A stretch of DNA of 64,000 bases from Eledone cirrhosa (Eukaryota), in assembly GCA_964016885.1 (NCBI GenBank), contig OZ024755.1:19716001-19780000 (forward strand). The letters are read 5' to 3'. The notes below the pieces were generated by a model. That model was not told the origin of the DNA. It ran no database searches and was given only the letters and a program-made list of their open reading frames with translations. The position numbers and the translations under genes are program-made. This document shows, piece by piece, positions 5,521 to 63,480 of the stretch; the first letter of the stretch is position 1, and each line of letters starts with the position of its first letter.

Positions 5521-5795
5521 GGAAAGTTATATTTAAATTGTTGGGTTACAACGAGTAAATATTTATAACTGATATAAAAGCACTCGACAAGTATTTGGAG
5601 TATATTTACGATATTAAATAAATGGAAACTATATTTATAAAACCATATTTATTTCATTATATATATTTCAAGGATATCATATTAACAATATGCTATGCCT
5701 TCCTCAGACAAAATACAATATAAACAGTTTTATAGATAAATAGATTTGACATACCGTACAACATCGACTTGTATTTGAAAAGTTGAATTGAGTTG
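5521..5795 (-). mobile_element. Family H hammerhead element, copy 1 (retains the 3' tail, ends at (TA)n)
   Basis: Homologous to 7883-8070 and 8090-8195; contains the ribozyme at 5650-5715 and the tail stem at 5582-5601. Confidence 0.75.
5650..5715 (-). ncRNA. Minimal type-I hammerhead ribozyme (intact core)
   Basis: Minus strand: TATTTTGT-CTGAGGA-aggcatagcatatt gtt aatatgatatcctt-GAAA-T-ATAT-A-TA-ATGAAATA. Stem I has G-U pairs, stem II is paired, loop III is palindromic, cleavage triplet AUA. Confidence 0.8.
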
Positions 5796-5801
5796 ACTGC
5801 C

Positions 5802-6382
5802 AAGGGAGAGGGGAGAGGGGGAGAAAGAGAGAGGGAGAAGTGGAGAAGGAGAGAGGGAGAGAGGGAGAGAGGGAGAGAGGGAGAGAGGGAGAAAGAGAGA
5901 AGGAGAGAGGGAGAGAGGGAGAGAGGGAGAGAGGGGGAGAGAGGGAGAGAGGGGGAGAGGGGAGAGGGAGAGAGGGATATGGGGAGAAGGAGAGAGGGAG
6001 GAGGAGAGAGGGATATGGGGAGGAGGAGAGAGGGATATGGGGAGAAGGAGAGAGGGAGAAGGAGAGAGGGATAGGGGGAGAGGGAAAGGGATAGGGGGAG
6101 AGGGATAGGGATATGGGGAGAAGGATAGGGGGAGAAGGAGAGAGAGAGAGAGGGAGAGGGAGAGAGATGAAGAGAGAGGGAGAGAGAGGGAGAGAGAGAG
6201 AGAGAGAGAGAGAGAGGGAGAGAGAGAGGGAGAGAGAGGGAGAGAGAGGGAGAGAGAGGGAGAGAGAGGGAGAGAGGAAGAGAGAGGAAGAGAGAGGGAG
6301 AGAGGAAGAGAGAGGAAGAGAGAGGGAGAGATAAGGACAGAGGGAGAGATAAGGACAGAGGGAGAGATTAAGAGAGAGGGGA
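5802..6382. repeat. G/A-rich compound repeat
   Basis: Direct reading; source of the P/S/L-rich ORFs. Confidence 0.95.
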
Positions 6383-6784
6383 TGAGCAATTTGAGCAGTC
6401 TTAGAAGGCACCAATTTGTGGAGCCTTATACTGCGGGTGGTGAAATATATATGAGGATAATTAAAAGGTTTGAATTAAGATGCGATACAATGAGTTTAAT
6501 ACGATAATGTAACCTATAGAAAGAGGCATTGCTATACTATATCTAGCACAAGATGCTACCTCTACATGGTCGTTGGACTTGATGCTACTAAATGTGTCAA
6601 TCTCAAATCGCACTCTACAGTTTTAAATATGACGGTCAATGCAATCATAGATATACAAAACAAGATGGTATATTAACCACCGAAATGCGTATAACCCATA
6701 AGATCTGATCTGAAGCGAAGAGGTAACAATATCAACAGCTGCCATAAGACAAATATCTATAATCCCAAGTAAATCAATTTTGAT

Positions 6785-7012
6785 GAATGTTCGATTACCG
6801 GTGACCCTTTGTGCCATTGAGCAAGATATTTTATTTCACGTTGGTCCATGCCTTGTCCCACATTGTGGTACAATGAATACCATTGAATATTAAGTTAAAG
6901 GCACACGTATATGTGGAATGCTCAGCCAGCCACTTGCACGTTAATTTCACGTGTAGAATGTCCCTTTGGTCGAACTACTGGAACATTTGTCTTCGGAACT
7001 GACGGTAATCCA
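6785..7012 (+). mobile_element. Degenerate SINE of another family (B-box plus CORE-like segment)
   Basis: GTTCGATTACC, TTGAGCAAGATATTTTATTTCACGTTG and CAGCCACTTGCACGTTAATTTCACG resemble a cephalopod SINE as I recall it; single copy here. Confidence 0.5.
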
Positions 7013-7059
7013 AAACCAAAATATTATTGTTGAAAGTTGATATTAAGGAAACGTGCCTA

Positions 7060-7265
7060 TTGTTGTTGTTTAACCCCAGGTCAACTCTGAGAAACATGTC
7101 TAGTCGTTATCACCCCGTGTATTAATTTTATGTCTAGGACTACATTATAGGATAAAGTTTCGATAATTTGGTCCCAGTTCTTTCTTATTTAAGAAGATAA
7201 TGTGCGATTCGAGAGATATTTGGTTGCTATTTCTAGTACGTCCACCCACCATGTAGAGGCTTTCT
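7060..7265 (-). mobile_element. Family I interspersed repeat (GCTAGAAATAGCAGCCAAAT...CTAAACAACAAC), SINE/LINE-tail-like
   Basis: GTTGTTGTTTAACCCCAGGTCA...TTTGGTTGCTATTTCTAG; homologs at 11745, 12018, 12805, 29225 and 36125. Confidence 0.7.
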
Positions 7266-7882
7266 TGTTAACTTCAATATGTTGATTCCATCAAAGATAA
7301 CTTGTGATAATTATTTCTCATAACACGAAGTCTGTGTGTGTCTGTGTGTGTCTGTGTCTGTGTGTGTCTGTGTGTGACGGGTGTTGTGTAAGGTATTAGC
7401 AGCTATGAAATCTTGAGGAGAGAATATGATGTGCGTTATTTATTTCTTGATATAAATAAGGTTTGACTTTTATTACGAGCATTACTTCACACGGGCATGC
7501 GCAGAACATTTTACTTTGAAACAGAGAAAAAAAAAATTTCAGATCTGAGAAGAGATGCCATACATAGCTAAAAGCATCTTCTCATCCAAGGATATAAATA
7601 GAACTTGATAGAAACATAATTGTCAGATCCAAGAGAATTCAGCTGGTTTCTTCTCCCACATTTTCAAAGATCTAACGTGGCTATTGTTTAGTTATACAAG
7701 ACCTTGTGAAAGCATTACATTTCCAGTAAGTTTTAGCGCAACGACAATACTTTTCTTTCTATACTGTATATTTCAAGAAGCACAAAGTATGGCGTCAGGT
7801 TTAGTTGGGTAATATTTCTTTTTAATGCAATTTCTTATTGATGCAAATCTCATGAAGCCTGCACTGTTTGTAAATATATATA

Positions 7883-8070
7883 TACGATATTAAACAAATG
7901 GAAACTATATTTATAAAACCATATTTATTTCATTATACATTTTTCAGGGATACCATATTAGAAATATGGCATGCCTTCTTCAGATAAAATACAATATATA
8001 AGCAGTTTTATAAATAAATTTGACGTACCATAAATATTGTTCAACTTCCATTTAAAAAAGTTGGTTTGGT
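7883..8070 (-). mobile_element. Family H copy 2 (tail-less) with near-intact hammerhead at 7926-7991
   Basis: Minus strand: TATTTTAT-CTGAAGA-aggcatgccatatt tct aatatggtatccct-GAAA-aatgta-TA-ATGAAATA; TA runs on both sides. Confidence 0.75.
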
Positions 8071-61176: not shown

Positions 61177-61178
61177 GA

Positions 61179-61397
61179 CACGAGCGTCCCTGTCAACTCA
61201 GCTCTATAACTATCAGCACACCAGCGTCCCTGTCAACCCAGCTCTATAACTATCAGCACACGAGCGTCCCTGTCAACTCAGCTCTATAACTATCAGCACA
61301 CCAGCGTCCCTGTCAACTCAGCTCTATAACTATCAGCACACGAGCGTCCCTGTCAACTCAGCTCTATAACTATCAGCACACGAGCGTCCCTGTCAAC
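61179..61397. repeat. 40-bp minisatellite, 5.5 copies
   Basis: C(G/C)AGCGTCCCTGTCAACTCAGCTCTATAACTATCAGCACA at 61181, 61221, 61261, 61301, 61341 and 61381. Confidence 0.95.
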
Positions 61398-61744
61398 ATT
61401 AACTTCCAACATCCTGTTATAATTCAAAAGCAAATATCTAAAAACGAGATTGTTAATTCAAATGTTTACGATACCTTTACCATAAGACAAATCGTTGCAA
61501 ACATTGCAATATTAGAGTCGTTAAGACTTTAAAGTGATGTGGGTATAGTGTTGTTTTGTACTTTTCTAGAATGCGGTTTCCTGTGGAACATGATGTTTGT
61601 TGTTAATGTAATTATCTAGAGATAAAATCAAATGTGCCAATTGGTTAATTATTGATATTATTTCATTGGAACTGAGATTTACTGCTCACAGTTTAATGGG
61701 AAAATTCATAGTTGAGCGAGATGAATAAAGCAAAAAAAACTGAC

Positions 61745-62141
61745 AGAGAGGAGATAGGGAAGAGAGAGGAGATAGGGAAGAGAGAGGTAGAGAGAGAGAG
61801 AGCGAGAGACGGAGAGAGAGACGGACGGAGAGAGACGGAGAGAGAGAGACGGAGAGAGAGAGAGAGACGGAGAGAGAGAGACGGAGAGAGAGAGAGACGG
61901 AGAGAGAGAGAGAGAAAGAAAAATGGAGAGAAAGAAAGATGGAGAGAGAGAAAGAAAGATGGAGAGAGAGAAAGAAAGATGGAGAGAGAGAAAGAAAGAT
62001 GGAGAGAGAGAAAGAAAGATGGAGAGAGAGAGAGAAAGAAAGACGGAGATGGAGAGAGAGAAAGAAAGATGGAGAGAGAGAGAAAGAAAGATGGAGAGAG
62101 AGAGAAAGAAAGATGGAGAGAGAGAAAGAAAGACGGAGAGA
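61745..62141. repeat. GA-rich minisatellites (GACGGAGAGA)n and (GAAAGAAAGATGGAGAGAGA)n
   Basis: Direct reading; source of the E/R/K-rich ORFs. Confidence 0.95.
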
Positions 62142-62575
62142 TACAGTGGGAGTTAGAAAGATATGTATATAAATGTTATAAAATTAACATGGTTTATTAA
62201 TTAGATCCCCAACTAAATATCTGATTAGATTGCTTTTTCAGGTTAAGCATGGAGGAAATCCGGTGTTGTTATAGGACAAAGGGCATGCGTCATATATTTT
62301 ATAGGAAAATCAATTACAATATATAGAGAGCCCAAGCAATCCACAATATAGAAGATTATAAAGAGATATGATACTTATTGACCGTTTATAATATATAAGG
62401 ATAGGAAACAGAGCATTGAAATAGTCTAATGTAAATATTTTATAATAGCCTAGTTTGAATGTAGAACATTCTCAACGGAGAGTTCATATGATATATCAAT
62501 ATAAAGGATAAACATTTTGAGTGCTTCTGATTTTAAACTTAATCCACTGATAACACACAAACGCACACATATATG

Positions 62576-62720
62576 TAAAAGGTAAATAGAAGTAACAGCA
62601 CAATCGGTACAGTATATGGAAAGAATATATTAGTTTAACGCTTGAAATAGCAGGAAAAGGGTCTTAACGTTTCGAACGCTAGTGCTTCATCAGCAGAAAG
62701 AATGAAGGAACGGGCAGGGC
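62576..62720 (-). mobile_element. Family E copy 2 with intact-core hammerhead (62662-62697)
   Basis: Minus strand: tctg-CTGATGA-agcac tagc gttc-GAAA-CGT-T-AAGA. Confidence 0.7.
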
Positions 62721-63257
62721 GAAATCAGAGAGAGAGGAAGAGGGGGTGGAGAGAGTGGGAGAGAAGGAGGCAGAGGGAGAGAGAGAGCGAGAGAGCGAGA
62801 GAGAGAGAGAGAGAGCGAGAGCGAGAGCGAGAGCGAGAGCGAGAGAGAGCGAGCGAGCGAGCGAGAGAGAGAGAGAGCGAGAGAGAGAGAGCGAGAGAGC
62901 GAGAGAGAAAGAGAGAGAGCGAGAGAGAGCGAGAGAGAGAGAGCGAGTCAGTTCCACTACATGGTGTGCTAATTTGTTGGGGAACTAACTCAAAACAGAA
63001 CTCGTCCTTGGACTGAGGGTTCTATTCACTACGGATTTTTTACCACTATATATATATAAATACTATGTGGTAAACTATATTTGGTCGAGTGCAAGGTCTT
63101 TCCCCACTTAAAAAACCCTTCAAAGCACATGCATTGCTTGTTCTGGATATGTTATAGGTTTGTGTGGCTGGCCGTGGCCTAAAAGTGCACCAAACTCTGT
63201 AAACTGACAAGCAGCACTCTTAGCAGAGTTTGCAGCCATCTCATATATACATATATA

Positions 63258-63480
63258 GTAATAATAATAAATTTGAAGACTAAAATCCAAAGAGGGCTCG
63301 ATAAGGATAAATATATATCAAATATATAAGAACCGAAGAGCAAATATTTATTAAAATAACAGATTAAAGTTTGAGCAAAGAATCGCTGCTTTCACCCTTA
63401 ACGGGGTCTTCAGAAGATCCCGTTAAGGGTGAAAGCAGCGATTCTTTGCTTAAACTTTAATCTGTTATTTTAATAAATAT
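63258..63480 (-). mobile_element. Family D fold-back element (~68-bp arms, apex at 63412 inside CUGAAGA) plus tail
   Basis: Minus strand: CTGAAGA-ccccgttaagggt-GAAA-gcagcgattc; the palindrome centre is TCTTC-A-GAAGA. Confidence 0.7.

Follow-up and report, generated by a model that had tools for sequence, protein, structure and literature searches.

A twice-repeated bulged stem beside the insertion ends of retroelements assigned to the Hydra clade of Penelope-like elements

A small bulged stem occurs twice in the elements described here, and both fixed ends of their copies lie a few bases 5' of one of the two stems. We consider it likely, from sequence comparison, that the stems are binding sites for the protein of the element itself and set two starts of reverse transcription, which would produce a tail on one side of an insertion only. 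The analysis began from 64,000 nucleotides of the Eledone cirrhosa genome (hereafter the window), in which a conserved, covarying stem with a 2-nt bulge had been predicted for hammerhead-bearing Penelope-like elements. That prediction was borne out, in more families than first seen, and the letters of all eight quoted stem stretches were as stated; it had overlooked that the stem is one of two, and that each insertion end lies a short way upstream of one of them.

The motif, RYUC-Y..R-UH-GARY-RCU, is built of a 4-bp outer helix, a U-led 2-nt bulge, one pyrimidine-purine pair and a 3' RCU, with inner domains spanning 6 to more than 50 nt. Outer-pair variants include A-U, G-C, U-A and GUUC/GAAC, and the core UC/GA pairs are invariant and thus give no covariation signal. 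The following features were located in the window:

5520..5608, minus strand: family H tail, from the near end to the far (TA)n junction at 5519/5520
5582..5601, minus strand: family H, stem 1 (spanned by 32 copies)
5666..5707, minus strand: predicted minimal type I hammerhead core of family H with palindromic loop III (pattern match)
8749..8894, plus strand: family B insertion between (TA)n runs, a short inverted tail-less arm and a direct tailed arm
8823..8846, plus strand: family B, stem 1 (59 copies; ends at -8 and +72)
8970..9009, minus strand: family C, stem 1, second window copy; its inverted arm, with a predicted hammerhead at 9161-9197 (plus strand), is tail-less and ends at 9259
32933..32956, minus strand: family B, stem 1, further copy
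34926..34989, minus strand: family F, stem 1 with a long inner domain (tail end 34851; inverted-arm end 35189)
38419..38455, plus strand: predicted family C hammerhead core
38520..38559, plus strand: family C, stem 1 (tail end 38604; inverted tail-less arm end about 37959)
40596..40620, plus strand: family J, stem 1 (palindromic arms 40258-40583; near end 40253, far end 40679)
44685..44708, minus strand: family B, stem 1, further copy
58337..58362, plus strand: family K, stem 1 with a private C-to-T change (palindromic arms 58177-58327; far end 58425)
63296..63341, minus strand: family D, stem 1 with a G-C outer pair (palindromic arms 63348-63476)
63390-63413, minus strand: predicted family D hammerhead core
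63621..63644, plus strand: family B, stem 1, further copy adjoining D

Two departures from the motif noted originally proved to be private to the window copies. The 'AtTC' of family K belongs to a form that occurs once among 27 copies, while the three commonest K forms (13 of the 27) all read ACTC; a search pattern with the private bases gave 0, and one with the common form gave 2. Similarly, the inner helix of family D had been called weak, but its first inner pairs are altered in the window copy alone, and 9/16 D copies read GCTC-TA..TA-TC-GAGC.

The seven window families had been regarded as unrelated; instead, judged by sequence, all are assigned as 3' ends of Hydra-clade Penelope-like retroelements, leading into open reading frames (ORFs) of one clade that are 32-51% identical. 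The Hydra clade comprises C-terminal EN+ Penelope-like elements (Craig et al. 2021, PMC8557442). Family C has a single ORF of 892 aa (L180:4418-7093), with the reverse transcriptase (RT; YRDD) followed by a C-terminal GIY-YIG endonuclease; 42 of the 43 relatives found match at least half of the query part, a Pfam search gave no significant match, and no relative was found in the viral contigs searched. N-terminal RWK and DKT are both present in family C; the former recurs as RWK in F, RWR in H, D and B, RWT in J and RWC in K, and DKT is found in H and J, the peptides read for D, B, F and K ending short of it. The family C protein has a CxCX5C linker, CxxC and CxH near the endonuclease end (both also seen in B- and H-linked ORF ends), and lacks CCHH. 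Canonical hammerhead cores and stems in the pseudo-LTR were predicted by pattern for H, C, J, D and K-family copies, and those of B and F were recognised by eye; none of them was called by Rfam. In several Hydra hammerheads, stem III is formed by actc/gagt. The single ORF with RWK, DKT, CxCX5C, CxxC and CxH, the pseudo-LTR hammerhead, the insertion into (TA)n, here visible as element ends abutting (TA)n runs, and the inverted 5'-truncated copies with a tail at one end all agree with published Hydra elements (PMC8557442). Differences from these are the tails of 70-180 nt, against 30-40 published, and the length of family C, above 4 kb (a 2.7-kb ORF and a 3' region of about 1.4 kb), against less than 3 kb, which is a stated tendency of the clade and no strict rule (PMC8557442).

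The bare pattern is weak evidence by itself: the strict form has 21 matches in the window and 10.5 in shuffles (30 block shuffles), about twofold. When a (TA)n run is required 30-100 nt downstream, 13 matches are left in the window versus 1.0 in shuffles (maximum 6). Tail clusters were also set up blind to the motif, by the inverted-pair signature, in 1.55 Mb of the Eledone cirrhosa genome (47 clusters, 127 insertions; some are sister subfamilies and not independent cases). The motif is present in 20/47 clusters; dinucleotide shuffles give an expectation of 1.15, and the antisense strand carries it in 1. In one of the 20, cluster 11, the match is out of register in a mutated copy and the true stem is seen in another copy. 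Bulges of 0, 1, 3 and 4 nt fit only 3, 3, 4 and 2 of the 47, and tails linked to other Penelope-like clades in this genome lack the motif.

In metagenomes, 42 of 61 Hydra families carry the stem under anchoring by sequence only. The first inner pair is kept at a 2-nt bulge in 41 of these 42 (25 U-A, 16 C-G), and pairs 2 and 3 in 34 and 33; at other bulge sizes the first pair scores 1, 0, 3 and 21. On a quick RT tree of the metagenome families this pair changed 6 and 7 times per side and 7 times jointly. An alignment of 34 chosen metagenome and 4 window stems shows 99.5% pairing, a figure that leans towards the structure. The bulge, originally said always to be 2 nt and U-led, does begin with U in 41/42 first stems, but in only 29/31 second stems. 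Outside the motif the tails are mostly unalignable (z <= 1.5 in 20/21 family pairs); for families H and K an alignment survives at the hammerhead (z 4.9). Thermodynamic folding counts against the proposed role: the isolated stem is the predicted best fold in just 4/7 window copies, with C, J and K favouring other folds, and z-scores range from -2.2 to +0.1.

The elements are ordered hammerhead, near end, stem 1, far end, stem 2 and start codon. Copies have two fixed ends, one 5-9 nt before stem 1 and the other 6-8 nt before stem 2 in the 5' UTR, as counted by scans for ends at a TA run. Near-end modes are -7 for H, J and F, -8 for B and K, -6 for C and -5/-9 for D, relative to stem 1. Family H copies end at -7 (21/58) or +83 (17/58), family C (75 copies) at -6 (17/68) and +93 (21/68), and family F, whose motif is identical in 24/25 copies, at -7 (10/32) and +139 (20/32). 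In 7/7 window families stem 2 was located 6-8 nt past the far end, followed by an ORF: of Hydra type in H, the intact 892-aa frame at locus L180 in C, at L009 in B, L296, L308 and L312 in F, L047 in D, as an ORF start at L354 and L355 in K, and likewise found in J. Since one element may sit inside the (TA)n run of another, an ORF close to a tail can be misleading, and a tail was linked to an ORF only if copies extend from one into the other. Twin stems are present in 27 of 30 testable metagenome families, versus 0.5 expected, at a spacing of 55-83 nt. The original placement of the motif 40-80 nt from the (TA)n junction stands insofar as the far junction lies 38-75 nt downstream in the window, but this distance varies, was measured from the wrong end and is merely the gap between the two stems; the constant distance is that to the near junction. 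TA begins at -6 in 17/31 second stems; for first stems it is most frequent at -6 to -8. The second stem often has a single inner pair (a second pair in 12/31) and lies mostly 11-38 nt upstream of an ATG.

Inverted insertions use one site per arm: after correction, 33 of 38 pairs join an arm that has the tail to one that lacks it, versus 18.9 expected. The stem is not required for one-sided tails in general, because clades without the motif also make them (13/18 after correction, 9.0 expected). For the Hydra clade, we propose that the RT-endonuclease protein would bind a stem on the RNA and nick (TA)n DNA, whose 3' end would pair with the UA some six bases upstream of the stem, the RNA being copied from there. 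A start at stem 2 would copy the tail and stem 1, and a start at stem 1 would omit the tail. Further, the two nicked DNA strands might be primed one per stem, perhaps by two protein copies; the resulting insertion would be inverted and would have its tail on a single side. More tentatively, the stems could form a two-site RNA ruler, each holding an RT active site six bases upstream, with one RNA serving at the same time for the priming of both nicked (TA)n strands.

Recognition of the stem by the element's own protein, as originally suggested, remains the most likely reading; as to RNA or single-stranded DNA, the wobble pairs of stem 1 favour the sense strand (G.U 11 versus A.C 2), and those of stem 2 show no bias (4 versus 5). 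A DNA role, in which the GIY-YIG endonuclease recognises the stems in element DNA that is single-stranded or extruded, and resolves the insertion intermediate by a cut some six bases from them, appears rather unlikely. The tail has indeed been suggested to arise by endonuclease-mediated resolution (PMC8557442), the Drosophila Penelope endonuclease required the tail for cleavage, as mentioned in PMC11167929, and predicted stem 1 pairing is about equally good for DNA (median 0.80 for RNA, 0.71 and 0.67 for either DNA strand). However, the range of inner-domain lengths speaks against duplex recognition, the wobble bias of stem 1 indicates the sense strand rather than first-strand cDNA, both tail ends were RT starts in vitro (PMC11167929), and stem 2, being absent from far-end copies, could therefore act only on the template or a longer intermediate.

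We regard as unlikely that the stems guide RNA processing, the transcript being cut just 5' of each and RT starting at the new 3' ends by ordinary target-primed reverse transcription. The fixed offsets would suit a cleavage guide equally, yet cutting would separate the stem from its template, the sole Penelope-like element tested started RT internally on uncut RNA (PMC11167929), and neither a ribozyme nor any other relevant family was matched by Rfam 15 covariance models (E up to 1) across the window and 6 loci with both stems. Little credence is given to a role close to the start codon, in assembly of the RNP or in self-control of translation, with ends set only by TA microhomology and near the stems by proximity: TA steps are abundant, yet every family ends at one or two of them, 5-9 nt from each stem, and stem 1 is distant from the ATG and equally conserved, against which stand the position of stem 2 shortly ahead of the ATG and the use of two neighbouring TA steps (-5, -9) by family D. 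Chance or inherited likeness without function is highly improbable despite the common ancestry of the families and the modest excess of the bare pattern, since the motif occurs twice per element, shows repeated double changes and is kept while flanks and tails are unalignable between families about 47% identical in protein.

Several specific candidates were rejected. An RT stop at stem 1 does not fit the 5' ends of 28 full-length family C copies (30 loci, 2 without a usable end), which are scattered from -21 to -1389, 3 of them inside stem 1. A self-complementary GAGY-RCTC dimer signal is contradicted by middle positions that are C-A in most metagenome families. A relic of hammerhead stem III would need GAA directly 5' of ACUC, an upstream CUGANGA core and H after GU, whereas the stems come after TA-rich spacers and are followed by RCU. 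The SECIS consensus is not matched.

In line with the original remark on Penelope-like elements, no description of the motif was found in the papers searched, nor in any Rfam family. Among the six published Hydra consensus sequences, inspected by eye, the stem is clear in 3 (a coral and two sea cucumber), nearly present in the sea louse, absent in the octopus (5' end) and untestable in 1, and the main text mentions no hairpin or bulge (PMC8557442). The closest functional parallel is the Poseidon element PAc, in which two internal RT starts flank the tail, RNA 3' of the start is needed and both strands are nicked and extended (Frangieh et al. 2024, PMC11167929). PAc resembles the present elements in these respects and in its AT-rich targets; unlike them, it belongs to another clade, has its tail within the ORF and starts in an AC-rich stem-loop, and no conserved or twin motif was reported (PMC11167929), nor was the motif seen by eye in the printed start region of this lizard element. 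The telomerase RNA template boundary element and DRT10 SL5 (PMC12632851) are likewise stems beside a short alignment region that set a copying boundary, and their RTs share a larger clade with the Penelope-like RT; these stems are situated on the 5' side of the template and bring copying to a halt. The Hydra-clade stems, in contrast, lie 3' of the start, are paired and reside in the element's own mRNA; their position 3' of the ends and the scattered 5' ends of C copies do not fit a telomerase-type template boundary element. In the R2 3' UTR and hepatitis B epsilon, the cognate RT is recruited, and its start of synthesis determined, by a structured cis RNA that contains a bulge or junction, R2 having a single site 5' of the RNA end and epsilon a single site whose bulge templates protein priming. 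This likeness is one of general descriptions.

The choice of start, the one-sided tail and the inverted copies of Penelope-like elements have been an open question for two decades, and the sole in vitro study found internal starts but not their signal. The motif described here is compact, covaries and occurs twice per element; from it both ends can be predicted to within a few bases across dozens of diverged families, and it is usable as a clade marker and end-finder in annotation. The two-site ruler, if true, would account together for internal initiation, the one-sided tail and inverted insertions, and would amount to a 25-nt portable signal starting a telomerase-like RT inside any RNA. The finding also bears on template positioning in telomerase's closest mobile relatives.

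The eight stem stretches quoted in the original prediction are all present in the window exactly as given. They represent seven families (B, C, D, F, H, J and K) of hammerhead-bearing Penelope-like element 3' ends and sit within short repeats embedded in (TA)n runs. Most of these repeats have an upstream minimal type I hammerhead and, on their 5' side, an inverted arm.

Additional stem-pattern matches and other repeats in the window.
32184-32209, minus strand: near-perfect stem of the G-C type, without a (TA)n run close downstream
22335-22361, 47747-47801 and 55993-56042, all minus strand: matches that could represent either older Hydra tails or chance hits
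964-1157, 9799-10570 (tandem) and some 25 further sites: the most abundant repeat, about 190 nt, without the same tie to (TA)n ends; probably a SINE
45367-46751: long low-complexity CAT/CAC/ACC tandem array with units of 41-53 nt; its open frames look like repeat artefacts

Upstream of family C copies, we found an intact ORF of 892 aa with the RWK, DKT, CxCX5C, CxxC and CxH motifs and without CCHH, a combination that marks the Hydra clade in PMC8557442. Only two of the protein relatives are named, and both come from octopods. ORF starts of the same type were linked to families B, D, F, H, J and K via read-through copies; six compared starts show mutual identities of 32-51% over 33-456 residues, and that of family K resembles that of H by eye. 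The families had been described as unrelated; since their ORFs are of one type and 32-51% identical where compared, they are instead distant relatives, and the elements are new members of the known Hydra clade. Outside the motif, the alignment of the tails is mostly lost (z at most 1.5 in 20 of 21 family pairs, the exception being K-F with 3.0); around the hammerhead, H-K (z 4.9) and H-C (z 3.8) are still alignable.

A search with an alignment of 34 relatives provided 77 metagenome loci (from the best 80 of 403), which form 61 families at 80% identity, with a median pairwise identity of 47%. The bulged stem of the tail region (stem 1) was located by sequence-only anchoring in 42 of the 61 families, 14 families being too short by the criterion of an earlier anchoring; the motif consensus is R-Y-U-C-Y ... 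R-U-H-G-A-R-Y-R-C-U. At the 2-nt bulge, inner pairs 1, 2 and 3 hold in 41, 34 and 33 of the 42 stems, the first being U-A in 25 families and C-G in 16. For an earlier set of 40 rows, the Watson-Crick counts of these pairs were 35, 29 and 23 versus 18.8, 14.3 and 10.6 upon permutation (p 5e-5 each), by a statistic that ignores kinship. On the RT tree, pair 1 requires 6 and 7 changes per side and 7 jointly, and pairs 2 and 3 require 20 and 22 joint changes versus sums of 28 and 31. The retained pairing and these joint changes bear out the predicted covariation of a stem with a 2-nt bulge. Stem 1 lies 42-67 nt past the hammerhead GAAA in 37 of 38 metagenome families. Among six published Hydra consensus sequences, five of them testable by eye, the stem is clear in three (Acropora and two Apostichopus), nearly present in Caligus and not found at the 5' end of the Octopus bimaculoides consensus.

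In the genome of the window, tails were defined independently of the motif, from loci in which one arm stops at (TA)n and its inverted counterpart runs on. In total, 127 insertions from 1.55 Mb were grouped into 47 clusters, some of which are sister subfamilies. With a strict matcher, the stem was found in 20 of the 47 clusters, compared with 1.15 from shuffles and one on the other strand, and is thus more frequent than expected by chance; a bulge of 2 nt fits 20 clusters and other sizes 2-4. Under a relaxed rule, the motif occurs in 21 of the 33 clusters whose tails reach at least 70 nt and in 1 of the 14 below that length. Wherever a motif-bearing tail could be linked to an ORF, the ORF was of the Hydra type. 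Four motif-less tail types are tied to ORFs that, by their sequence motifs, we take to resemble Neptune (locus L137; loci L039 and L097), Poseidon (L049) and Naiad (L062). One 14-nt word is common to three Poseidon-like, motif-less tails (clusters 4, 17 and 36, e.g. L124, L031 and L125), and a different word to two others, one Naiad-linked (clusters 6 and 20; L053 and L054); other clades may carry start signals of their own. Tandem non-coding hammerhead repeats, retrozyme-like in appearance, were also observed at L179:560-2020 (476-bp units), L054, L129, L135 and L190. They lack the stem and carry, upstream of the ribozyme, the octamer ATGCAAAT and a TATA-like word, possibly an snRNA-type promoter.

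Copy ends were placed where the TA run begins, counting from the first base of stem 1 (20-68 ends per family). They are bimodal in all seven window families, the C, F and K sets being enriched for tailed copies owing to how sequences were fetched.

Modes of copy ends in the window families.
H: -7 and +83
B: -8 and +72
C: -6 and +93
J: -7 and +83/84
K: -8 and +89
D: -5/-9 and +84
F: -7 and +139

Beyond the far end, a second stem (stem 2) was found in 7/7 families, at a distance from the junction of 6-8 nt in H and 6 nt in the other six, and the ORF starts within about 15-65 nt after it. The pattern used to search H, J and K (116, 277 and 2 matches, respectively) contained the 5' half of stem 2 and left out its 3' half and the ORF; in family F, one outer position of stem 2 is unpaired. 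Twin stems, spaced by 55-83 nt, occur in 27 of 30 testable metagenome families versus 0.5 expected. A TA step begins at -6 in 17 of 31 metagenome second stems. In five of six metagenome cases with a 3' copy that stops in (TA)n and a 5' copy that continues, the two diverge 0-6 nt before a stem. In these families the inner helix of stem 1 usually opens with U-A and is longer than that of stem 2, which opens with C-G in 26/31 and frequently consists of a single pair. The sites may be unequal in their affinity or in the order in which they are used.

Inverted pairs were surveyed in 1.24 Mb chosen independently of these elements. In motif families, 54 of 59 pairs have a tail on a single arm (both arms in 4, neither in 1; 4 further pairs unclassified); after removal of one defining pair per probe family, 33 of 38 are one-sided versus 18.9 expected (P 1.8e-6). 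A weaker trend in the same direction is seen in motif-less families (13/18, P 0.047), in agreement with the one-sided tail that is a known feature of all Penelope-like elements (PMC8557442).

According to PMC11167929, AT-rich DNA is nicked on both strands by a Poseidon protein, whose RT starts inside the RNA, at two sites bounding the tail, and requires RNA 3' of the start. For Hydra elements, we infer that protein binding at each stem sets the RT starts. The bound protein would place the UA about six bases upstream of the stem in its active site, for pairing with a nicked TA end over 2-4 bases. Priming at stem 2 would yield the tailed arm, priming at stem 1 the tail-less arm, and the use of both the typical inverted insertion. 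Several results speak against this mechanism. Taken alone, the stem is the most favourable predicted fold in only 4 of 7 window copies, although the median predicted pairing probability is 0.80 in the 42 metagenome stems; folding prediction does not distinguish RNA from DNA; and a wobble bias (G.U 11 versus A.C 2) is confined to stem 1.

The stem has no match in Rfam, and no description of such a motif was found in the full text of mostly open-access papers; within that scope, the twin stem is a cis motif without a published description. The original observation is confirmed, and its interpretation, a cis-acting structure recognised by the element's reverse transcriptase or endonuclease, is partly right: comparative support for the twin stem is strong and its function is putative. 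Families F (L289-L312) and C (L181-L210) are very young, with best copies 99-100% identical and several ORFs of more than 800 codons open, and are good sources of a candidate active protein.
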